DNA from: a virus
Lineage: Duplodnaviria; Caudoviricetes
DNA length: 64,000 nucleotides
Direction: 5' to 3' (one strand)
IMG/VR virus record: IMGVR_UViG_3300010163_000012
Coordinates: 37,804 to 101,803 of that record
Shown here: positions 1 through 61,364 of the stretch, in pieces
Position numbering within the stretch: the stretch's first letter is position 1
Layout: every line of letters begins with the position of its first letter
Position numbers and translations under genes: made by a program
Notes under the pieces: generated by a model
Told to the model about the DNA's origin: nothing
The model's database searches: none
What the model saw: the letters and a program-made list of their open reading frames with translations, nothing else

Positions 1-580
1 GTTCATCACGATTAATGAGGCCAGCTACTGTATTACGCGGAGATTTAAGTCTTTCTCCTGTTGCATCTGAGACTCTTCCTGCCAATTCTTGTTCCCATGT
101 TCTACAGTCGAACACTAATTCCCCAAAAGTGTAATGAAGGCTGCTGGAACCATCTTGCTTATAAGAAGTCAGCAAGTCGTAGTGTGGAGAACAGTCTTGA
201 CCTTCATTGTCGGCTCCACCTCTTGAATATGTTTTTTTAGCTAACTCATCCCTTAGCCAAGACACTCCGTCGAATTTTGGAGTGATTACTAATTTTGCTA
301 TCTCTGGTATAGCCATTGAAGTCAGCCATTGCTTAATTTCAGCAACAGATTTTACCTTATTCAATGACTTCATTGGTATAGGGAGTTTCATTTTACGACC
401 TTTGCTTACAATAGATGGTTCCACACGCTGAAGCCATGCGTTGTTCGGGTCAATACGCCTTAGCTCATTAATCAGTTCGTCATACTGTGTGTCTGAGATT
501 TGTGGTTCTCCTTTACGATACGCTTCGTTGTGTTTGGCTATTTGCGCAACAAGGTCTTCGATATATTTTTGAGTATTCAT
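1..580 (-). CDS. ligA: NAD-dependent DNA ligase (N-terminal part, runs off the left edge; not in the ORF track)
   Basis: Manual translation from ATG at 580: MNTQKYIEDLVAQIAKHNEAYRKGEPQISDTQYDEL (domain Ia Y..G.P.ISD..YD), PMKSLNK, adenylation motif PKFDG (266-280), SRGG, GELV, SPRNTVAG. No stop before the window edge. Confidence 0.92.
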   Translation of the reverse strand, partial: MNTQKYIEDLVAQIAKHNEAYRKGEPQISDTQYDELINELRRIDPNNAWLQRVEPSIVSKGRKMKLPIPMKSLNKVKSVAEIKQWLTSMAIPEIAKLVITPKFDGVSWLRDELAKKTYSRGGADNEGQDCSPHYDLLTSYKQDGSSSLHYTFGELVFDCRTWEQELAGRVSDATGERLKSPRNTVAGLINRDE

Positions 581-634
581 ATTAGATATAGTTAAGGGAG
601 AGCCGATTGGCCCTCCCTAAGTTGTTGTTAATGA

Positions 635-1078
635 TTATTTAATACCGGTGGAATTAAAACCGCCTTCGCCACGCTCGGTTGAATCAAGGGAATCTGCCTC
701 CTCCCATTCAATCTTTACGTATTCTTTGGCGACAATCTGACAGATACGGTCGCCATTGTTGATGATGAAAGGTTCTGTGCCGAGGTTGTGAACTATGGCG
801 CCTACATCACCACGGTAATCTGCATCCACTGTGCCGGGAGCGTTAGTTAGAGTGATGCCATGTTTGAGCGCAAGACCAGATCGAGGTCGGACTTGGAGTT
901 CGTAACCTTCAGGAAGCTGGATGTTGATTCCAGAATGAACAAGCTTGTGTTCACCAGGCATAATGGTAATCGGTTCGTTGGTAAATGCACGTAGATCTAA
1001 ACCGGCAGACATAGGAGTTGCATACTGAGGTAGCTCGTTGTTCGAGTGATTGATGACTTTTACTTTGATGGTTTTCAT
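635..1078 (-). CDS. dut: dUTPase (trimeric)
   Basis: All five motifs present: SAGLDL, RPRSGLA, GTVDADYRG, GDRICQ, RGEGGFNSTG. Confidence 0.97.
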   Translation of the reverse strand: MKTIKVKVINHSNNELPQYATPMSAGLDLRAFTNEPITIMPGEHKLVHSGINIQLPEGYELQVRPRSGLALKHGITLTNAPGTVDADYRGDVGAIVHNLGTEPFIINNGDRICQIVAKEYVKIEWEEADSLDSTERGEGGFNSTGIK

Positions 1079-1422
1079 TTTTTATTACTTTTAGAATATT
1101 GTTTATATTTCATTCCTTTACGAGACATACTGGCCGTTGGATAGTATGTTCGTGTGACTCCGCACATTTCGTCATACTCTTCCAGTTTCAAAGTACCGTA
1201 ATCGCTTTCTTCTATTTCGATGTCTTTGGCAAGAAACCGAAAATAAAGTCCGCAACTGGATATACTGTTGCCAACACATGCCTGATAAATTGTCGAGTTG
1301 GACGTCTTAAAGGCTGTACCAGCAGCAGTTAATGAATGAAAGTAGCCAATAAATCTTTTAAGGGGACTAAAGACCAAAACCGGATTACTGGTCTTATTAT
1401 TGAGATTTTTCTTCACAGCCAC
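1075..1422 (-). CDS. NUMOD1/IENR1-like small DNA-binding protein
   Basis: FHSLTAAGTAFKTSNSTIYQAC...GLYFRF matches the F.S...A.......I...C....G.Y NUMOD1 pattern. Overlaps both neighbouring genes. Confidence 0.5.
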   Translation of the reverse strand: MAVKKNLNNKTSNPVLVFSPLKRFIGYFHSLTAAGTAFKTSNSTIYQACVGNSISSCGLYFRFLAKDIEIEESDYGTLKLEEYDEMCGVTRTYYPTASMSRKGMKYKQYSKSNKK

Positions 1423-1852
1423 TCATCGCTAAAAGGACTTTGTTGGATAGCCGAGTTTGCGCAGCTGATACGAGATATGTATCAGACACTGCAACCCCAT
1501 GCGCAAATAGCTCAAAAATCCTATCGCACATATAAGCCAAAAAGTCAGGTTCGACAAATGCTATGAACAAGAACAGAAATGTTCCATCAATTAGATAATG
1601 CCCTTCTCCGTTTATAAGACATACTTGGTCGTCTTTGAGCTCGTATGTATCACAAAGTGATTTGATTTGATAGCGATACTGGCTGAAGAATGGCTGTATG
1701 GGCATAGGTTCTGTCATTTTTGACAGATAGTGTGTTGCATCAAAGTATGACCGCCCAGATTCACTTTGACCAAAGAGCAAGTTGGGAAATTCAGGAAAGG
1801 ATTGCTCTTTACACTGGAGTTTGATTTCGCCTTTCCCTGTCTGGCCCAACAT
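1397..1852 (-). CDS. KilA-N/APSES-like DNA-binding protein
   Basis: YFDAT near the N-terminus and G.HYLID..FLFLFIAFVEPDFLAYMCDRIFELFAHG resemble the KilA-N consensus. Confidence 0.6.
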   Translation of the reverse strand: MLGQTGKGEIKLQCKEQSFPEFPNLLFGQSESGRSYFDATHYLSKMTEPMPIQPFFSQYRYQIKSLCDTYELKDDQVCLINGEGHYLIDGTFLFLFIAFVEPDFLAYMCDRIFELFAHGVAVSDTYLVSAAQTRLSNKVLLAMSGCEEKSQ

Positions 1853-36929: not shown

Positions 36930-37832
36930 ATGGCTATATATACAGTAAAACCGAATCAAAACCTATTTGATGTTGCTCTACATTTGTATGGTAGCATTGA
37001 GGGCCTATTTGATCTTCTCATTAGCAACCCAAATCTCAATATGACATCTGAACTTGTGTATGGGCAAGAACTCATATATCACGAAGATTTTGTGTTGAAC
37101 GAATCGGTTGTTAGTGAGTTAAAAAAACAAAACATTACGCCGTCATCTGGAGCGCGTAAGGTTTATTTCAAGCGCCCGAACGAAGATCTGATATTTCTTA
37201 TTGGAGTCAATGCTGATATGACTTTTACTACTTTCAAAGCAGCAGGAAAAGGCACCATGATTATTGACTGGGGAGACAACACGGAATTAGAGCGCGTGCA
37301 ATTAACCGTCGCCGTACAATCTGTAGAACATTACTTCGATAATGAGACAGAAAAGAGGCGTGTCCGTATCTATGGAGACACCAAAACGCTTAAATTCACT
37401 CAGCTTGACACAACTGGGCTTGGCGGTGCGCTGATTCTTTGCAAGCCAGTCATTGTCGATGAATATGCTTGTACCAATCGTGGATATTCGTTAGTTGGCT
37501 TGTCAATGTTTGAAGGCACGTACAAAATAGACCTTCATTCAACCACTATTGAAAGCCTGTTGCCAATAGGAGACATGAGCCTTCAAGAGCTTGATTTGAC
37601 GGGCGTTCATTTTCTGTATGATGATACAATCGATAATTATTTGGAATATATCGTAGCGAACTATGCTGATCGTCGGCCTTGTACGGTGTGGCTTACGACA
37701 GAGCCTTCAGCAAGAGGGTATGCAGCTATCAATACGATTCTCAATGAGCCTGAATGGAATATCTCCGATATATGGAAATTTTATATCGACAACAAATTAT
37801 ATCAACCTGACAATGGCACGAACATTAAGTGA
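36930..37832 (+). CDS. LysM-domain baseplate protein
   Basis: N-terminal YTVKPNQNLFDVALHLYGSIEGLFDLLISNPNL...L.YGQEL. Confidence 0.7.
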   Translation: MAIYTVKPNQNLFDVALHLYGSIEGLFDLLISNPNLNMTSELVYGQELIYHEDFVLNESVVSELKKQNITPSSGARKVYFKRPNEDLIFLIGVNADMTFTTFKAAGKGTMIIDWGDNTELERVQLTVAVQSVEHYFDNETEKRRVRIYGDTKTLKFTQLDTTGLGGALILCKPVIVDEYACTNRGYSLVGLSMFEGTYKIDLHSTTIESLLPIGDMSLQELDLTGVHFLYDDTIDNYLEYIVANYADRRPCTVWLTTEPSARGYAAINTILNEPEWNISDIWKFYIDNKLYQPDNGTNIK

Positions 37833-51921: not shown

Positions 51922-52465
51922 GATTGTCGTTAAGCTCATACATTCAGGTTATCGGTTTCCGAAAGGCGGAGAACCGACAAGAGTTATGCGTACAGCTCTC
52001 CAACGGGTTGAAAAGAAATATGGTGCGCTTACAGCCAAAAGAATAGTTGATTATGTGGTGTGTTCATCTTATGCCTTCAAAGATAGGGGCTCTAATTGGA
52101 AATTGAATCAAATATTTGGACCAAAATCCCTTGAACGATTCAACTCTGACAAAGGTCGCATATACTTTGAAAATAAATGGCTGGAATCCAAAGACCTAAG
52201 CCGGTCGTCGTTGCTAAATATGATTGTTGACCGTAGTGAACATCCCAAGGCAAAATTCATTTTTGTACCCAGTGAAGAAGGTACGAAACAACGGCTGCTT
52301 AATAGAGAAGTCGGTTTTGTTATCTGCCAAACCTCCACATTGGGATGGTCTCCACTGTCAACAGCATGTTCAGAGTGTCATTTTGTCGCGAAATGTAAAA
52401 CAGAAACTCAAAAGAAATATCCGGAGATTTTCCGATTAAGAATAGAATATGTCAACAAACAATAA
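51875..52465 (+). CDS. Hypothetical protein with C-terminal Cys cluster
   Basis: C...C..C....C near the C-terminus. Directly upstream of the helicase. Confidence 0.6.
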   Translation: MVNEYLIKQTLKMFHEIVVKLIHSGYRFPKGGEPTRVMRTALQRVEKKYGALTAKRIVDYVVCSSYAFKDRGSNWKLNQIFGPKSLERFNSDKGRIYFENKWLESKDLSRSSLLNMIVDRSEHPKAKFIFVPSEEGTKQRLLNREVGFVICQTSTLGWSPLSTACSECHFVAKCKTETQKKYPEIFRLRIEYVNKQ

Positions 52466-53795
52466 AACAAACGTCCTTTCGGAAGCTTTCATCGAAGATT
52501 TATTCGTCACTTGTATTGAGGACAGTTATATTCTTTCGATGGTATGCGAGCACCTGGAGGAAGAACATCTTCCAGACCGCAATACGGCAGCCGTCCTCAA
52601 AGCTTTTAAGGACTATTATAGAGAATATAAGCGAGTGCCGAATTACTCCATAATTCAGCAAAAACTTGCCGGAAAAAACGGCGCACTTAGATTCTGGAAG
52701 GATGCCTATGACAATGGTGAGGCATTCGCCACTGATGAGTGCCTTGGACTGCTTGAAGAGTATCTGAAACGTGTTGAATTTCAAAAAGCGTATAAGAAAG
52801 TTGGTGAAGTTTACAATCGTGAAGGGTTGGATAGTGCCCAGCAACTACTTGCAAAGCATGTGGACTGGATGCGTACTTTTTCTTTGACAGAATCGACTTA
52901 TACAGATGTGATTGACACCTTTACTACACGCCATATTCAAAATCGTGCCAAGAACAATTCACGTGGTGCCATACGTGCTATCACGCGCTTTTATATTGAT
53001 GAGCTGGACAACCTTAACCAAGATAGGGACTTGCGTGGTCAGCTCTCTTGTATTTTGGCTCCGACAGGCATTGGTAAGAGCCACGCAGCCCGTTGGATTG
53101 GTTCTCAGGCTTGTATCGATGGCTTTAACGTACTCCATTTCCAATTAGAGGGTAGTCGGGAAGAAGTGGAAAACGCATATTCAGCAGCACTTGTCGCATG
53201 TAATGCCTATAGTTATGAAAAGGGATTTATCAAGGACAAGGATATGGATGCTTTTGCAAAAGAACTTGAAAGTATTGCCGGAAAACTTTATGTAAGAAGT
53301 TACCCTAAATTTAATCAGCACGTTTCCACCATTAACATCAAGGAAGCTATTGCTGAATTTCGCAAGAATTACGGTGTTAAGCCTGACATCATTCTCATTG
53401 ATTCTATGGATTTGCTAAATGATTCATCAGGCCGTAAATATGGTGATAGCGGTGAACGTCTGAAGCGCATTGCCGTAGCCAATGACCTAAAAGATATTGC
53501 CAGTGAGGAAGAAGTGTGGGTAGTAACCACTTACCAAGCTCGTATCGAAAATCCTGACTGGATAAATGACGAGAAGAACGTGTTAACAGAATATTCTTCT
53601 TCGGAAGCAAAGGGTATCGCCCAACCACTTACTCATTTAATTACACTAAATCAATCAGCGAACGAACGGCGTGAAAAGACAATGAGAATCCATGTTGCTA
53701 AAAGCCGTTTTTTTCCAAAAGGAGACACGTTTAAGATAGCTACAGATTACGACCATGAAAGGTTCTTTGATCGCCAGCGAACAGCAAATCTTTAA
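52449..53795 (+). CDS. Replicative DNA helicase (DnaB/T4 gp41-like)
   Basis: Walker A APTGIGKS, VLHFQLEG, PDIILIDSMDLL, TTYQ, KSR. Confidence 0.9.
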   Translation: MSTNNKTNVLSEAFIEDLFVTCIEDSYILSMVCEHLEEEHLPDRNTAAVLKAFKDYYREYKRVPNYSIIQQKLAGKNGALRFWKDAYDNGEAFATDECLGLLEEYLKRVEFQKAYKKVGEVYNREGLDSAQQLLAKHVDWMRTFSLTESTYTDVIDTFTTRHIQNRAKNNSRGAIRAITRFYIDELDNLNQDRDLRGQLSCILAPTGIGKSHAARWIGSQACIDGFNVLHFQLEGSREEVENAYSAALVACNAYSYEKGFIKDKDMDAFAKELESIAGKLYVRSYPKFNQHVSTINIKEAIAEFRKNYGVKPDIILIDSMDLLNDSSGRKYGDSGERLKRIAVANDLKDIASEEEVWVVTTYQARIENPDWINDEKNVLTEYSSSEAKGIAQPLTHLITLNQSANERREKTMRIHVAKSRFFPKGDTFKIATDYDHERFFDRQRTANL

Positions 53796-53809: not shown

Positions 53810-54856
53810 ATGTATATAAGTAAGGAAGATAAGGAATATTTGATGCGTGAGCTTCAGACTGAACTTCACGCAAGACTTGACGGAGGTCGCAAGAATTTAA
53901 TTGTGCCAGAATGTGTATGGTGTGGTAAAACAGGGGGAAAGTTGGGTATTTATGTCGGCTCGGAAAAGAATGGAAAAACATTCGGTATGGCCCATTGCTT
54001 TTCTTGTGGCAAGACTTGTAAGGATATTAACCGATTTGTTGAAGAAATTGGCCGACTGGATTTGCAAATCAAAGACACCGCTAAATTTACTCCTATAGAA
54101 ATGCCTGAGTTCTTCAATTTGGAAGAAGATGAGATTGACGACGAACTTGTGGTTGTAGAAATGCCTGAAGCTTGGAAACGTTGTTTTAAAAATCCATATC
54201 TGAAATCTCGTGGATTTACTGTTGATGACTACGCCTATTTTCCAGTTGGAACAACTCGTGGGTTGAACTTTAAGTTTGACGACTATGTGATATTTCCAAT
54301 ATATGATGAAGGTGATATTGTCGGGTATGTGTCCAGACACGTGTGGAAAAAAAGTGATATTGACGAGTATAATGATAAGGCAAAACGTAACAATAAGTAT
54401 CAAATTCGTCGATATAACAACAGTATTGAAAATGATTTTGTCAAGCTCTTATACAACTACGACTCTGTAATTGAGGATGAAACTGACACTGTAATATTGG
54501 TGGAGGGCATATTTGATGTCATTGCTCTTACACGCAAACTTGACTTGTATGACAACCATCGTATTGTGGCGGTTTGCACATTTGGAAAGAAAATCAGCGA
54601 TACCCAAATCTATAAACTTCAGAGTAAGGGGGTTCGTGACATCATTATAGGCTATGATACTGATGCGTCTGACGCCATCAATGTAGCCGCCGATAAATTG
54701 AATGAGTATTTCGACAATGTAATAATTGCAAAACTTGTGGGTGAAGGAAAAGATTGGGATGAAGCCAATTTTTGGGACATCTATGACACCTTCTCAGAAT
54801 CTCTTTTTACTCCAATCGAATATAAATTAAGTAACGTAGATGGCAAAATCAGATAG
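53810..54856 (+). CDS. DNA primase (DnaG-like)
   Basis: Zinc finger CVWC...HCFSC, YLKSRG, TOPRIM LVEGIFD and GYDTD, KDW. Confidence 0.9.
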   Translation: MYISKEDKEYLMRELQTELHARLDGGRKNLIVPECVWCGKTGGKLGIYVGSEKNGKTFGMAHCFSCGKTCKDINRFVEEIGRLDLQIKDTAKFTPIEMPEFFNLEEDEIDDELVVVEMPEAWKRCFKNPYLKSRGFTVDDYAYFPVGTTRGLNFKFDDYVIFPIYDEGDIVGYVSRHVWKKSDIDEYNDKAKRNNKYQIRRYNNSIENDFVKLLYNYDSVIEDETDTVILVEGIFDVIALTRKLDLYDNHRIVAVCTFGKKISDTQIYKLQSKGVRDIIIGYDTDASDAINVAADKLNEYFDNVIIAKLVGEGKDWDEANFWDIYDTFSESLFTPIEYKLSNVDGKIR

Positions 54857-56573
54857 AATAACAGAACTATACGAGTGGCTTGAGAACAATAAAATTAAGT
54901 ACACCCTTGTGGATTCGGATGTGGTTGATATTCCTGGATTCGGAAAGGCTTACTTCCAAGATACTCAGCGTTCAACCTATAATTCCATTTTTCGCAAAGA
55001 CGTGGATGGTAATTTTATCTTTAATAGTATGGTACGTCCGGAAGAATTGCTGAATGATGGCATTGAAAATATCGTATTCAAATTTGGTGATAATTTTTAT
55101 TACCATAACCTCAATCAAGATTTCAAACTGAATATCTTGAAATACGTTGGTGAGCGCACCCCACTTCAACATAACATTCCATTTGTCAATCTTGGGGTGC
55201 ATACTCCTTTTGAACTTTTAAATGGGAGTTTTATGCCGGAAGAATGGATTCGCAAAGCAAAATACCTTGGGCATACGGCACTTGGAATTTGCGATTACAA
55301 TACAATGGCCGCTTGTTTTATCTTTCAGAAAGAATGTGATATAGCCGGAATTAAACCGGTGTTTGGCTATTCTCTTACAGTGACGGCTGAAGGGTTTAAT
55401 TTCGATGCGAAGGTATATGTTCAGACACAGCGTGGTTTCCGTAATCTGCTCCGGATTCAAAAAGCTATTATGGTTGACAATGTAAAAGACAAGACCATTG
55501 ACATCTCAGAGCTCTTGAATCGAGCAGAAGGAAATGTTCTTGTTCTTGACAAATATGCGCCTACTTTCTTTGCAGGTAACGAAAACATTATTGGCGCTTT
55601 GACAAAGGCTTTTGACGGTATTTACTATCAGGTCGATTTGTCTGAATACAAAGCTGAACGCATCGATATTAAAGTACTGGAAGCCACTAAAAAATACTTC
55701 CATGAGTGGTATGATAACTTGAATATGCCTCGCCCTATTCTGTTAAGTGACGCATATTACCTCGACACCGATGACGCGAAAAATAAAATCATTCTCAACA
55801 AAGTGGCAGAGGGCGCCGCGCATGAGCAAAGTAACGACCAGTATTTTAAGGATGCAGATGAGCACTATGCTTTGTTTGAAGCCCTGTTTGGAGATGATTG
55901 GGATATAGAAGAGCTGTTCCGTGAATGTGCGGAGAACACGTTTGCCATCGCAGATCATGCCGAGGGTCGAATGGACACCACCAGAAACTATATGCCGAAA
56001 TATGACATGACTCAGCAAGAGCAAGCAAAGTATGGTACAACGCACAATATGTTCAATCAACTCTTGGAGGAAGGGCTTCAGCGTCTTGCCCCTAAAGATA
56101 AAATAGAGCAATATCGGAAGCAGATGGAATATGAAAAGTACATCATTGAATCTACTGACAACGTGGATTATCTGCTTGTACAATATGACACCTGTAATTG
56201 GGCTCGTAAGAATAACATTTTTGTAGGTTGTGGCCGTGGTTCTGCCGCCGGTTCGCTACTTCTTTATTTGCTTGGTATTACTCTTATAGATCCCATTAAA
56301 TACAATCTCATCTTCGAGCGTTTCTTGCTTCCAGAACGTGCCGGGCTATTGCCAGCAGATACTACAATTATTGGCAACGACATTGATTCCAATCGCTATT
56401 TTGAACTGACTTTGGACAATGGAAAGACTATTAAGGTCGATTGTGATGCAGAGTTTATGGTTCTGCGTGCTGGTGAAGATGAACCAATTAGAATCTATGC
56501 CGACGAGCTTCAAAAGGGTGATGAAATTATCTTTGATAATAAGGATATTCTTTTTACAATCAACGAGTTATAA
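54840..56573 (+). CDS. dnaE: DNA polymerase III alpha, N-terminal half (PHP and palm part) ending in a degenerate Hint-N fragment
   Basis: PHP domain, EQYFK-like DQYFK, YLL.QYD...WA, GCGRGSAAGSLLLYLLGIT.IDPIKY.L.FERFL.PER. Confidence 0.92.
   Translation: MAKSDRITELYEWLENNKIKYTLVDSDVVDIPGFGKAYFQDTQRSTYNSIFRKDVDGNFIFNSMVRPEELLNDGIENIVFKFGDNFYYHNLNQDFKLNILKYVGERTPLQHNIPFVNLGVHTPFELLNGSFMPEEWIRKAKYLGHTALGICDYNTMAACFIFQKECDIAGIKPVFGYSLTVTAEGFNFDAKVYVQTQRGFRNLLRIQKAIMVDNVKDKTIDISELLNRAEGNVLVLDKYAPTFFAGNENIIGALTKAFDGIYYQVDLSEYKAERIDIKVLEATKKYFHEWYDNLNMPRPILLSDAYYLDTDDAKNKIILNKVAEGAAHEQSNDQYFKDADEHYALFEALFGDDWDIEELFRECAENTFAIADHAEGRMDTTRNYMPKYDMTQQEQAKYGTTHNMFNQLLEEGLQRLAPKDKIEQYRKQMEYEKYIIESTDNVDYLLVQYDTCNWARKNNIFVGCGRGSAAGSLLLYLLGITLIDPIKYNLIFERFLLPERAGLLPADTTIIGNDIDSNRYFELTLDNGKTIKVDCDAEFMVLRAGEDEPIRIYADELQKGDEIIFDNKDILFTINEL
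56346..56570 (+). other. Degenerate split-intein N-fragment (Hint-N-like)
   Basis: LLPADTTI (block A-like, no Cys1), FELTLDNGKTIKVDCDAEFMV (block B-like, no TxxH), YADELQKGDEI. Confidence 0.65.
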
Positions 56574-56575
56574 TT

Positions 56576-57901
56576 ATGGAACTGACAGACGAAATGAGCC
56601 GTGCGTTTCAAATCATAGAAGAAACGACAGACAGCCTCTTCATTACAGGTAAGGCTGGAACCGGGAAGACTACATTCCTGAAGTACATAGTTGAACACAC
56701 ACATAAAAATATCATTGTGGCTGCATCGACAGGGATTGCAGCTGTCAATGCCGGAGGCGTGACGTTACATAGTTTGTTCGGAATCCCGTTTGACTTGCAG
56801 GGGCCTAATTCTCCCATTAAAGGGAAATTATACCTAAACAAATTTGACTTGTTTGGGAAACTTGATACACTGATCATTGATGAAGCCAGCATGGTTCGTC
56901 CTGATGTATTAGACTATGTGGACCGGAAGTTGAGACTCTATCGCATGAGCGAATTACCTTTTGGAAGTATTCAAATTGTATTGTTCGGAGACTTATTTCA
57001 GTTGCCACCGGTCATTAAGAAAAATGAAGAAATCATTCTTCACCAGTGGTATCGTGGAAAGTACTTTTTCCATTCTCATGCGCTTAGAGAAACTGGATTC
57101 CAGATTGTCGAGCTTACCAAAGTGTTCCGTCAGAAAGATGAGCGATTTGTGAATATGCTGAATCGCATACGAGAATATCGGCTTCTTCCAATGGATATTG
57201 ATGACCTGAGTGAATTGCGGGATAATCGTGAAAGCAAGGACTTCAATACGCAAGCTATTCATATCTGTTCTTTGCGCCGTGATGCCGACAAAATCAATAA
57301 TCAAATGATAGGGGAGGCATCACACTCGTTTGCTGCTGAGTTCAAAGACTCCTTCAACCCTCAAAATGCGCCCTGCGATTTGAATTTGAAGCTACGTGTC
57401 GGTGCTCGTGTAATGACACTGGTGAACGATAATCAACAGGGATTTTACAACGGCTCTATGGGAACTGTCAGTTGGATTAGTGCCACTCAAATTGGAGTAC
57501 TGTTAGATACCAGCCAGGAAATAATCGTTGAGCCATACATTTGGGTTGACCGTGAATATAAGGTCAATGGGAATAAAATAGAGACAATAGAAAAAGGAAG
57601 CTGTAGGCAATTCCCGCTTGCTCTTGGATGGGCTATTACAATCCATAAAAGTCAAGGCTTGACATTCGATAACATTGTGGTTCATTGTCCTTATACGTTT
57701 GCTCCAGGAATGTTATATGTAGCGTTAAGCAGATGCACTTCTATGAAAGGAATTGTCACAGATTTCTTTATCAATAAAAGATCCATCATCAAAGACAAGG
57801 AACTCATCGCTTTCACCAAAATTTGCCAGAATAACGGAAATAAGTTTAATCTGGATGTATATCGTGCCATTTGTAGAAGTTTGTGCTATGAAGATAATTA
57901 A
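56576..57901 (+). CDS. Pif1/RecD-like SF1B helicase
   Basis: FITGKAGTGKT, ASTGIAA, TLHSLF, IIDEASMV, GDLFQLPPV, LTKVFRQ, QFPL.LGWAITIHKSQG, YVALSR. Confidence 0.93.
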   Translation: MELTDEMSRAFQIIEETTDSLFITGKAGTGKTTFLKYIVEHTHKNIIVAASTGIAAVNAGGVTLHSLFGIPFDLQGPNSPIKGKLYLNKFDLFGKLDTLIIDEASMVRPDVLDYVDRKLRLYRMSELPFGSIQIVLFGDLFQLPPVIKKNEEIILHQWYRGKYFFHSHALRETGFQIVELTKVFRQKDERFVNMLNRIREYRLLPMDIDDLSELRDNRESKDFNTQAIHICSLRRDADKINNQMIGEASHSFAAEFKDSFNPQNAPCDLNLKLRVGARVMTLVNDNQQGFYNGSMGTVSWISATQIGVLLDTSQEIIVEPYIWVDREYKVNGNKIETIEKGSCRQFPLALGWAITIHKSQGLTFDNIVVHCPYTFAPGMLYVALSRCTSMKGIVTDFFINKRSIIKDKELIAFTKICQNNGNKFNLDVYRAICRSLCYEDN

Positions 57902-57983
57902 GATACAAGAATACAATACGAAGCGTCCAGTGAAAGTACTGGATTGTTTCGTTGACTCCGGCTATATCAAGAAAGAGCATGGG
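57888..57983 (+). other. Degenerate split-intein C-fragment (Hint-C-like)
   Basis: MKIIKIQEY......VLDCFV (block F-like) ... EHG followed by Ser+1. The canonical junction is HN/S. Confidence 0.65.
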
Positions 57984-60065
57984 TCACTTCCTGACGTGGA
58001 CAATGACTTCCAGTCAGATAAACGTCAAGAGGTTAAGGAGTATATAGAACGTCGTTATAACCACGATGGTAAACAGCGTGTGTTTTCTGCCGGTACATTC
58101 ACAACTCTAAAAGCCAAGGCTGTTATCAAAGACGTGGCCCGCACAATGCGTATTAGCCCATCATTGGTAAATTACTTGACTGCTATTATAGAGGATGATG
58201 GTGCCGATTACACAGAGATTTTCAAGCTGGCCGCTACCAATAAAAAGATTGCAAAATTTATCCATGACTACCCGCAGTTGTTCGAGGATATTCGGACACT
58301 GATGTTCCAGCCTCGCTCCAGTTCCGTTCATGCGTCGGCACTTCTCGTTACTCCGGACGATATGGATGGCGAAGATGTAGAATGCTTTGATTTTGTACCT
58401 ATCAAAAAGGTTGATGACATCCTTGTAAGCGAGAATAGTGGTTACGATCTCGATGAACTGGGTTTGCTTAAAAACGACTGCTTAGCAACGAAAGAACTTT
58501 CTAAACTTCACCAGACTTTTGATTTGGTCAATGAGCATTATAATGCCTGCATTACAATGGAAAGTGTTGTGGAAAGCGATTTGGCAGATGAACGTGCATA
58601 CGAATTATTGCGTCAAGGGTTCACACAGAATGTCTTCCAACTTTCATCACGTGGCATGACAAAGTTCTTGGTCGAAATGCAGCCAACCTGTATTCACGAT
58701 CTTATTGCAGCCAACGCCCTGTTCCGTCCTGCAACATTGGAAAATGGCTCAACAGAGGCTTACGTTGACCGTAAAAAGGGTTTAGTTGCGCCAACATATC
58801 TTTGGGGTACATACAACGCTTTGAACGATACTTTCGGATTGATTACCTACCAAGAGCAGGTGGCCCAGATTGCCCGTGAGGTTGGAGGCTTCTCACTGGG
58901 TGAAGGTGTGAAACTCGTGAAATTCATTTCCAAGAAAAAGACAGAAAAGATTCAGACAATGCGTGAAAAATTCTTGAAAGGATCCAAAAAGAACGGGTGC
59001 CCTATTGAGGATGCAATTGCAATTTGGCAGCAAATCGAAGCGTGTGGCTCTTATCTCTTCAACAAATCACACGCTACTGCCTATGCTGTCACCTCGTATA
59101 TCGGTGCCCACTTGAAAGCGCAATATCCTACAGCGTTCTATACAGTGGCATTAGAATGGGCAGATGATAAGGAACTTGTTCCTATCATGTCTGAAATGGA
59201 GGCTTGTAGTAATGCCAAAGTAGTGTCTCCGGACATTAACAAGAGCGCTATGAACTTTTATACTGATTATGAAACCAATCAAATATTCTGGTCACTTTCT
59301 CGCATTAAGATGGTTGGTACGAAAGCTGTTGATTGGATTATCAACGAACGGAATAAAAATGGTGAATTTACCAGTGTGATAAACTTCATTGAACGTATAT
59401 TCAAATACAAACTCAAAAAGTATCAATACTGGGATGACCCGGATAATGAAGATGAAATACAACGCTGCCCGGTTAATGCCCGCCACGTTCTAAACCTTAT
59501 CTTCGCCGGTTGCTTTGACAAAATAGAAAATGCGCTGTCAGTAGTTGAACGATATGCGATAGTAGAAAAGGCAGCGGAAACTCTTGGGTTTGAAATCAAG
59601 CAAAAAGACTTCCCTGACGATTTGAGAAACAAACATTATTTCTGGTCTCAACAGCAAATCAAAGTGTCTGGTCTTGGAGCTATCGACTACAAACGAATAT
59701 ATGACAACAGCGAAATAAAAGAGCAGATTCGTGGCCGAGCAGCATACACGACGTTGAAAGACTCTTTAAGTGAAGATAAAGATGGAAGAAAAGCCGCAAT
59801 CGCAGCAACCATCGTTGAAATGGAAGAAAAGAAATTCACCAGTAAGAAAACCGGCGAGCAAGAAGTATTCTGTAAAGTTACCCTTCAGCAGAACAACGAT
59901 ATGGCAGAGCTGATAATATGGCCGGAAGAGTATCGTAATGCTCGTGCTTTACTGGTAGGGGCTAAGAATAAATTGATAGTCTGCATGGCTACCGTAAAAT
60001 ACAGCGATTATGTAGGTCATAATAATCTCCAACTAACACGTAATAATTTTATTGAAATAATATGA
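57888..60065 (+). CDS. dnaE: DNA polymerase III alpha, C-terminal half starting with a degenerate Hint-C fragment
   Basis: SLPDVDNDF (two catalytic Asp), HASA, LLKNDCL (third Asp), VFQL, LFRP, YQEQ, YLFNKSHATAY, PDINKS, C-terminal OB fold. Start placed at ATG 57888. Confidence 0.92.
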   Translation: MKIIKIQEYNTKRPVKVLDCFVDSGYIKKEHGSLPDVDNDFQSDKRQEVKEYIERRYNHDGKQRVFSAGTFTTLKAKAVIKDVARTMRISPSLVNYLTAIIEDDGADYTEIFKLAATNKKIAKFIHDYPQLFEDIRTLMFQPRSSSVHASALLVTPDDMDGEDVECFDFVPIKKVDDILVSENSGYDLDELGLLKNDCLATKELSKLHQTFDLVNEHYNACITMESVVESDLADERAYELLRQGFTQNVFQLSSRGMTKFLVEMQPTCIHDLIAANALFRPATLENGSTEAYVDRKKGLVAPTYLWGTYNALNDTFGLITYQEQVAQIAREVGGFSLGEGVKLVKFISKKKTEKIQTMREKFLKGSKKNGCPIEDAIAIWQQIEACGSYLFNKSHATAYAVTSYIGAHLKAQYPTAFYTVALEWADDKELVPIMSEMEACSNAKVVSPDINKSAMNFYTDYETNQIFWSLSRIKMVGTKAVDWIINERNKNGEFTSVINFIERIFKYKLKKYQYWDDPDNEDEIQRCPVNARHVLNLIFAGCFDKIENALSVVERYAIVEKAAETLGFEIKQKDFPDDLRNKHYFWSQQQIKVSGLGAIDYKRIYDNSEIKEQIRGRAAYTTLKDSLSEDKDGRKAAIAATIVEMEEKKFTSKKTGEQEVFCKVTLQQNNDMAELIIWPEEYRNARALLVGAKNKLIVCMATVKYSDYVGHNNLQLTRNNFIEII

Positions 60066-60577
60066 AACCCTTAATTATTTGCATCGTGGGTGCATCTGGA
60101 AGCGGCAAGACGACTGCTTCCATGATTCTCCAGCAACAATTTGGCTGGAACGCCATCGTATCGTACACCACACGCCCTATGCGCGAGGGAGAAATCAATG
60201 GTAAAGATCATTGGTTTGTCGGTAAAGACAAAGTGCCGCCGCAAAACAAGATGTGTGCCTATACTAAATTTGGCGGTTATGAGTATTGGACGGAATGGAA
60301 CCAGTTCTTGACACTCTTCCCCAATGTGTACGTGATTGATGAAAAAGGTCTTGTAAATCTGCAAAGCAAAGAATCAACCCCTTTCCCAATTACCTTGGTA
60401 ACAATCAAAATCAAACGTGATAATCTGGAAGAAATTGATGAGAAGCGAAGAGAACGAGACAATGAGCGCATCCACATCCCAGACGAACTGTACGATTATG
60501 TCATTGACAACAATGGTACAATAGAGAGATTTCGTACTCTCCTTTATTTAACAGCACAATGTATAATTCAAAAATAA
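60062..60577 (+). CDS. gmk: Guanylate kinase-like protein
   Basis: GASGSGKT and SYTTRPMREGEINGKDHWFV. Confidence 0.85.
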   Translation: MKPLIICIVGASGSGKTTASMILQQQFGWNAIVSYTTRPMREGEINGKDHWFVGKDKVPPQNKMCAYTKFGGYEYWTEWNQFLTLFPNVYVIDEKGLVNLQSKESTPFPITLVTIKIKRDNLEEIDEKRRERDNERIHIPDELYDYVIDNNGTIERFRTLLYLTAQCIIQK

Positions 60578-60584
60578 TAAGAAT

Positions 60585-61364
60585 ATGGCAGCACCTAAAG
60601 AAGAATCTCCGATATTGGTAGCATTTACAATTGACTTTGAGACTGGCGGTCTGAAATGTCAAACATCGGCCTGTACTCAGATAGCAGTACATGCCACTCG
60701 ACTCGATACATTTGAAAAAATTGGCACATACCAAAGTTATATTGCTCCCTATAATCGCAAAGAGATAGCCGGTACCACAAAAAAACGAAAGACACTGAAG
60801 TCCAAATATGACAATGACGATGCAGTGTCAATGGATTATGAGACCAGAGCATTGGAGTATTCGGCTATTACTATGGATATGCTGGAATCCTATGGCAAGC
60901 CGATTGAAATTGTTGCACAAGAAGTTCTTCAGTTTATGATAGATAACACGCCAAAATGCCCTAAAAACATGAAGCCATTCCTGATCGGACAGCATATCGC
61001 ATTTGACGAGGGCTTCCTTTGCCAGATGTTTGAGTACGCCGGTTTGATGAATGAACTGAAAAAAGTTCTTAGAGGGGATGAGGATTTCTATGGCAACTGG
61101 CATCCACTTTATGTAGATACAATTGTTTTGGGACAGCTTGCCTTGTGTCATTTGCCTAATGTCAATTCATATAAACTGGAAATTATGTGCGAGAATCTGG
61201 GGATTGAGCTGGACGATGCCCATGATGCGGATGCAGACGTATCAGCTACCACAAATGTCGCCGCTGTCCTCACCCAGCGTATGAGAAGCATTGGCGGAGA
61301 ATATGAAGGTGAAGATCTTGCAATTTCCAAAGCTGAAAAATCCCGTAAACATTTCAAAATTTGA
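60585..61364 (+). CDS. DEDDh 3'-5' exonuclease (DnaQ/epsilon-like)
   Basis: IDFETGG, GQHIAFD and AHDADADV motifs. Confidence 0.88.
   Translation: MAAPKEESPILVAFTIDFETGGLKCQTSACTQIAVHATRLDTFEKIGTYQSYIAPYNRKEIAGTTKKRKTLKSKYDNDDAVSMDYETRALEYSAITMDMLESYGKPIEIVAQEVLQFMIDNTPKCPKNMKPFLIGQHIAFDEGFLCQMFEYAGLMNELKKVLRGDEDFYGNWHPLYVDTIVLGQLALCHLPNVNSYKLEIMCENLGIELDDAHDADADVSATTNVAAVLTQRMRSIGGEYEGEDLAISKAEKSRKHFKI

Follow-up and report, generated by a model that had tools for sequence, protein, structure and literature searches.

A phage DnaE divided at its active site carries extra segments that may form a splicing-dead split Hint domain

We analysed a window of 64,000 nucleotides (nt) of viral DNA (Duplodnaviria; Caudoviricetes; IMG/VR record IMGVR_UViG_3300010163_000012, positions 37,804 to 101,803) in which the C-family replicative polymerase DnaE is encoded by two separate genes. 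The source is a 101.8-kb virus record, representing a genome that is 92% complete. The phage is of the gut Bacteroides type, and the cultured Bacteroides phage BS-TP1, which is 80% identical to the window in DNA, has the same split DnaE arrangement. The upstream gene, DnaE-N (window positions 54840–56573; plus strand, as for all window genes described here), was defined from the list of open reading frames (ORFs) and from Pfam. It encodes 577 amino acids (aa), comprising the N-terminal domain, the PHP domain and the first part of the palm as far as FERFLLPERA, followed by an additional tail. The downstream gene, DnaE-C (57888–60065), encodes 725 aa covering the remaining palm, the thumb, the fingers and the helix-hairpin-helix (HhH) domain. 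Its frame is open from 57753, and in-frame stops upstream in relatives fix the start at the conserved ATG at 57888. Pfam coverage of the two products is complementary, with PHP and positions 3–99 of DNA_pol3_alpha in DnaE-N, and positions 93–260 of DNA_pol3_alpha, the finger domain and HHH_6 in DnaE-C; PHP, the palm with the Asp pair of PDxDxD, fingers and HhH thus follow in order across both.

The break in DnaE lies five residues upstream of the catalytic Asp pair. The N-half extein closes with FERFLLPERA (aa 492–501; 56313–56342), placed by the spacing in unsplit homologues, while the first residues of the C-half extein, SLPDVDNDF (57984–58010), match the S[ML]PDxDxD of unsplit DnaEs and include the Asp pair; residues D36, V37, D38 and D40 of DnaE-C are invariant in the family alignment. 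The earlier note on this DNA, made from the sequence alone, had described a DnaE split across two genes at its active site, and this observation is real, confirmed by the ORFs, the two Pfam halves, the 30 in-frame stops that separate DnaE-N from DnaE-C and about 70 relatives. We considered reading through the gap and rejected it, given those stops and the frames of the N and C genes, which often differ in relatives. An Rfam search of the gap found no intron.

Unsplit DnaEs define what has been added. In 115 of 122 of them the spacer from PER to DxDxD is exactly four residues long, [VI]-S-[ML]-P, and the N-extein therefore ends at PERA, one residue past PER. The additional sequence is a 108-aa insert lying exactly between PERA and SLPD, and in the window it begins and ends with Gly. 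Its first part is a 76-aa tail on the N gene (G502–L577; 56343–56570), which is strongly acidic, reads DxDA at the block B position of inteins and finishes in an FDNKD..FT motif; it was assigned from the family alignment, sub-threshold Pfam matches, AlphaFold2 (AF2) modelling, matches to inteins and the ratio of nonsynonymous to synonymous substitution rates (dN/dS). The second is a 32-aa head on the C gene (M1–G32; 57888–57983), with a block-F-like LDCFV string and a terminal Gly in place of Asn, assigned from the family alignment, AF2, a model of the complex and dN/dS. The insert adjoins a Ser that is also conserved in unsplit DnaE, and the site just before this residue is, judging from sequence, where an intein would sit. 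An unsplit relative (P0040), 48.5% identical over DnaE-N residues 7–508 and colinear with both halves, has no counterpart of tail or head. The extra sequences of both genes are exactly as first reported in the earlier note, as are the charge counts (the N piece has 18 D/E and 7 K/R, the C piece 7 K/R and 4 D/E). The start of the insert needed correction: the extra segment is real, but the spacing in unsplit DnaEs makes the tail 76 aa long and its position 1 an invariant Gly rather than Leu.

Relatives of the tail region are encoded by 113 IMG/VR stretches, of which 80 were kept and examined. A survey of homologues, proposed with the original observation, found the same split with the same tail in approximately 70 contigs and no fused or intact-intein form among 1.84 billion representatives, the unsplit P0040 being free of the insert. 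The length of the head is invariant, always 32 aa, and it is always fused directly to the catalytic motif. When the tail was compared with these representatives using phmmer, family members and a few repeat proteins were returned, with no canonical intein and no fused form; a search for longer homologues gave unsplit DnaEs without an intein, and nothing else. Values of dN/dS were 0.12 for the tail and 0.32 for the head, compared with 0.03 and 0.09 for the adjoining polymerase segments (mean dS approximately 1.5). Both pieces of the insert are under purifying selection, and the relatives show no random decay of the kind that would have indicated a pseudogene. Conservation within the tail peaks over its last ~13 residues (aa 565–577; 56532–56570), the FDNKD..FT motif, in which D, N, D and F are invariant.

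The residues required for protein splicing are missing or not conserved across the family. Position 1 is an invariant Gly in every lineage, including distant ones at 37–47% identity, with no Cys, Ser or Thr nucleophile; where a few distant relatives have a Cys, it occupies extein position −1, not position 1. The Thr-x-x-His of block B is replaced by D-x-D-A, with the His position a nearly invariant Ala, rarely Ser. At its last position the insert has Gly in at least 90% of members; distant lineages have Ile or Ala there, and no lineage has Asn, Gln or Asp. Retention of the penultimate His and of Ser at extein position +1, remarked on at the outset, holds for the window but is not conserved across relatives: the His is confined to the window's subgroup, with GG, SG or NG elsewhere, and position +1, which is Ser in the window and most relatives, is Gln or Ala in some lineages. 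In several relatives Thr or Met replaces the block-F Cys of LDCFV; this, together with the lack of a terminal Asn, rules out the class 3 route, in which that Cys is the nucleophile of a Trp(B)-Cys(F)-Thr(G) triad. The proposal of a catalytically dead element is thus borne out at the level of sequence, and extends beyond the window to the whole family of about 70 contigs. We would expect no covalent product to form.

Evidence that the tail and head derive from an intein came from sequence, where it was weak but consistent, and to a greater degree from structure prediction. Intein_splicing was the commonest Pfam match, and the top one, for 23 of 30 family members, with a best E-value of 5.9e-5 that is below the gathering score, and a feature search of the ESM Atlas gave a weak lead, with Intein_splicing at rank 5 (score 0.77). 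Pfam found nothing relevant in a 41-aa head query. A comparison by hhalign of the concatenated family profile with single canonical phage inteins was uninformative because each target has one sequence. The canonical intein of a distantly related phage contig aligns colinearly with the tail and head, placing its VTDNH over VDCDA and its block F over the LDCFV region.

For structural comparison, tail and head were modelled as a single chain with AF2 by translating through the frame between them, with Gly in place of each stop; the paired alignment comprised the 16 loci with both genes in one frame. The predicted local distance difference test (pLDDT) score was 73–85 for the tail core and 82–88 for the head, and below 40 for the junk linker. 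An exhaustive structural comparison with 48,161 PDB chains matched the model to PI-PfuI (Z 8.4, 79 residues aligned, rmsd (root mean square deviation) 2.9), the PolII mini-intein (Z 8.0) and gp41-1 (Z 7.5), with about 20 further Hint chains after these, among them MchDnaB-1, KlbA, Prp8, NrdJ-1 and hedgehog Hint and bacterial intein-like (BIL) chains. Every non-Hint row aligns to the junk linker alone. With Foldseek, the top ~33 rows were all inteins or Hint domains, at E-values of 0.03–1. The case for a Hint domain rests on the uniformity of these hit lists rather than on any single Z value. Two structural searches that return almost only Hint domains support the Hint-type pattern originally proposed for the extra segments, and tail and head together are predicted to adopt this fold.

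We also predicted the complex of the two pieces as separate chains, using 80 aa for the tail and 41 aa for the head, an alignment of 30 rows for each and three controls. The ipSAE score was 0.62, compared with 0.00 for the best control; this mark was reached by 58 of 80 solved complexes and by 2 of 110 mismatched pairs. Contacts agree between runs to at least 96%, pLDDT for the partner is 70 and the predicted contacts number 164. In the model, head residues 3–9 run antiparallel to tail residues 22–27, head residues 17–18 pair with the block-B strand, and the tail is contacted by head residues 1–29. As split inteins have solved structures, this result demonstrates likeness to split inteins rather than proving binding. 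With clean controls, the prediction supports an interaction between the extra segments, on which the earlier suggestion of a clasp depended.

The gap between the halves holds a gene for a Pif1/Dda-like superfamily 1 (SF1) helicase of 441 aa (56576–57901; Pfam PIF1, 8e-31), in a different frame from DnaE-N. A helicase is found in the gaps of nearly all relatives, at 42–90% identity. In other lineages there is no gap gene, the stop and start codons being adjacent or overlapping. The remaining cargo is varied: a helicase with an HNH_3+NUMOD4 gene, a helicase with a GIY-YIG+NUMOD1 gene, a methylase with HNH, HNH alone, or two small ORFs, one of them T4_Y16D-like (loci showing this variety are L092:103-2238, the P0033-carrying contigs, L093:5001-9520, L071:6226-7122, L053:6226-9123 and L002:6064-8124). 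A script found no ATG-initiated helicase ORF in the gaps of L045, L047, L048, L049, L059 and L068, where the gap has its usual length of 1,407–1,417 nt; another start codon or a frame break could be responsible. The window carries a PIF1-like helicase in place of a homing endonuclease, HNH and GIY-YIG genes being confined to some relatives. Since the gap content varies, the conserved feature is the split Hint relic itself, and the gap is a hot spot for insertions, which is what a “fractured gene” would be expected to show (PMC2677866).

The explanation that we favour, and think likely, is that the tail and head are a splicing-dead split Hint relic retained as a non-covalent docking module that joins the two DnaE chains. 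This agrees with the domesticated intein relic and non-covalent clasp first suggested for the locus; the predicted structures support it, and from them we infer that the relic docks and holds the two chains together. By the route we envisage, a Hint element of the intein type would have entered the DnaE of an ancestor, between PERx and S[ML]PD. The element would then have split to give the fractured-gene state, with some relatives keeping homing-endonuclease genes in the gap and most a Pif1-like helicase, and the Hint domain would have shrunk to 108 aa with the loss of every splicing residue. The acidic tail and the head would now interlock into one small Hint-like beta domain. Because a Hint fold has neighbouring termini, docking would juxtapose PERA and SLPD, allowing the palm to form around the active site with no peptide bond. 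This would yield a polymerase of two chains that permanently carries an extra domain.

Several observations weigh against this explanation. Likeness to inteins was never significant in any sequence search, and the tail family profile, searched against the PDB, found no intein chain at E-values up to 10. The single-chain model leans on an artificial linker and on 16 sequences only, and a Z score of about 8, taken alone, falls within the range for unrelated folds. Predictors may recall split inteins from their training, and in the complex, head residues 30–41 and the junction residues make no confident contact. The head is under less constraint than the other segments analysed, and charge complementarity is weak (mean −13 for the tail, +1 for the head). 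By analogy with the NrdA halves of Aeromonas phage Aeh1, which assemble without their tails (PMC3045599), the polymerase halves might come together via the palm alone.

This last point leads to an alternative that we consider unlikely, if by no means negligible: that the tails are Hint relics but not a clasp, the halves joining via the palm and the relic being kept for folding of the nascent halves, for higher-order assembly or for a replisome partner, for example the Pif1-like helicase. The most conserved part of the tail, FDNKD..FT, has pLDDT below 50 and falls beyond the Hint core that was modelled with confidence, and the assembled relic would be strongly acidic, at about −12 net; these two features leave room for an additional partner, and the FDNKD..FT end may bind something else. 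Moreover, the tails of Aeh1 NrdA are dispensable for the heterodimer and required for activity (PMC3045599). Such a role is harder to reconcile with the direct binding predicted between tail and head, with its 164 contacts, or with a head of invariant length that is always fused to the catalytic motif. We give little credence to the idea that the tails are not intein-derived at all, being new docking peptides that arose, as in Aeh1 NrdA, on the splitting of the gene by a mobile element, with the Hint likeness convergent or artefactual. It would account for sequence evidence that stays below threshold, for the resemblance of the first tail residues, GL.P.D, to the DnaE motif and for the overlap of the N and C Pfam matches at 93–99. 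However, for the confident part of the model, Hint domains are almost the only matches in two independent structural searches, the block-B-like and block-F-like strings are colinear with a canonical phage intein, and the insertion lies just before a conserved Ser, as inteins do.

An active, non-canonical split intein that still ligates both halves is very improbable. At the C junction the window does read His-Gly-Ser, its block-F-like string includes a Cys, and class 2 and 3 inteins tolerate a non-nucleophilic position 1 (PMC2807308). Yet no lineage has a terminal Asn, Gln or Asp, the block B His is absent, several relatives have Thr or Met for the block-F Cys, and position +1 is Gln or Ala in some. 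We know of no mechanism that resolves the branched intermediate without a terminal amide residue. Finally, it is scarcely credible that the locus is a decaying pseudogene in a phage that uses the host polymerase. The frame break seen at the junction of head and extein in ten relatives (described below) might be read in that way, but these breaks occur at one fixed position with a co-varying hairpin, and the downstream frame of ~700 aa is always open; both DnaE halves are intact across ~70 contigs, with dN/dS of 0.03–0.09.

The split polymerase is part of a replication module with the order DnaB-like helicase, primase, DnaE-N, PIF1-like helicase, DnaE-C, guanylate-kinase-like gene and DnaQ-like exonuclease. 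The DnaB-like helicase (52449–53795) and the primase (53810–54856) were assigned from the ORF list and the annotation of BS-TP1, and the guanylate-kinase-like gene (60062–60577) and the DnaQ/RNase_T-like exonuclease (60585–61364) from Pfam. The primase overlaps the start of DnaE-N by 17 nt (54840–54856), the ATG of the Pif1-like helicase lies 2 nt past the DnaE-N stop (56571–56578), and DnaE-C starts inside the helicase gene, with an overlap of 14 nt (57888–57901). Genes packed and overlapping in this way suggest that the three products are co-transcribed and translationally coupled, and the three genes are probably co-translated. The 92%-complete genome has no family A or family B polymerase (PolA or PolB) and no second DnaE. 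In the GenBank record of BS-TP1 (PQ571274.1), whose first base falls inside the DnaE-C gene (bases 1–1615, reverse strand), DnaE-N is labelled simply “DNA polymerase” and the C half at the record end is unannotated.

A separate observation concerns the point at which the head meets the polymerase in ten relatives, the window not being among them. In these, the head ORF ends with SLP and a stop codon, and the Asp pair is encoded in another frame, which resumes after an insert of 7 or 8 nt led by that stop codon (L013:8407-8460, L015:6002-6055, L022:8399-8452, L032:7957-8010, L035:8382-8435, L038:3843-3896, L039:8380-8433, L041:7868-7921, L089:290-343 and L002:8071-8124). An HNH homing-endonuclease gene lies just upstream of the Hint-C head in 8 of the 10 loci, the short L089 locus being unchecked; L032 and L041 have the insert with no HNH ORF of at least 90 aa. 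A 10-bp hairpin ends inside the Pro codon, with a folding free energy (dG) of −19 to −27 kcal/mol compared with a mean of −9 in 40 uninterrupted loci. All 100 of 100 pair cells are paired, 6 of the 10 pairs show compensatory double changes, and none of 500 shuffles reaches the covariation score. In L015 and L035, two 8-nt loci that were read by eye, the downstream frame has no ATG, GTG or TTG between the last stop and the Asp codons. From its sequence, the insert between SLP and DVD is a candidate for a short ribosome hop or frameshift tied to a homing endonuclease, analogous to T4 gene 60 with MobA (bioRxiv 10.1101/2022.08.31.505936, 10.1101/2024.12.09.627546).

Inteins are usually viewed as selfish elements that either keep splicing or are lost. 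We see about an even chance that the relic described here is an exapted, selected subunit-interface domain, such that the only replicative polymerase of a large family of gut and rumen phages is an obligate two-chain enzyme held by a splicing-dead split intein, whose junction in relatives also carries a mobile-endonuclease-linked, hairpin-driven ribosome hop of 7–8 nt. If so, a third fate exists for an intein, as the permanent docking domain of an essential enzyme, and a C-family replicative polymerase can work with a palm built from two chains. Such a natural domestication of an intein into a docking module would also be a source of small, natural, orthogonal heterodimerisation tags for protein engineering. 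The cultured phage BS-TP1 makes the clasp idea directly testable. In the literature, of which our coverage is incomplete, we found no description of a natural splicing-dead split intein acting as a docking module or clasp.

Parts of the arrangement have clear precedents. In fractured genes, which include three DnaE loci, the halves of a naturally split intein are separated by a free-standing homing endonuclease gene (Dassa et al. 2009, PMC2677866). As in those, the cut falls at a conserved site of an essential replication gene, each of the two parts carries half of a putative Hint domain with an acidic N piece, and an unrelated gene occupies the gap, with HNH_3+NUMOD4 or GIY-YIG+NUMOD1 genes found there in relatives of the window. 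Fractured genes differ in keeping all five catalytic residues and trans-splicing (PMC2677866), whereas here none of the five is retained across the whole family, the domain is shorter (108 aa), the gap gene of the window is a Pif1-like helicase and some lineages have no gap gene. In Aeromonas phage Aeh1, NrdA-a and NrdA-b, separated by mobE, come together by means of unique tails (Crona et al. 2010, PMC3045599). This too is a phage enzyme fragmented at its active site by a mobile endonuclease and functioning, through its tails, without RNA or protein splicing, but the tails of Aeh1 are short and originated at the insertion, whereas ours model as two halves of one Hint domain. The cyanobacterial Ssp and Npu DnaE inteins likewise place DnaE in two genes with complementary Hint halves; unlike the phage relic, they are inserted in the fingers, splice at a high rate and belong to genes that lie far apart (well established; PMC2677866). 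A Hint fold that persists once its splicing chemistry is lost or altered is familiar from the yeast HO endonuclease (PMC7282813) and from bacterial intein-like and hedgehog domains. Those Hint derivatives are single-chain proteins with other catalytic roles, in cleavage or DNA targeting, and none is a split, two-chain docking module of the kind that we propose for this DnaE.

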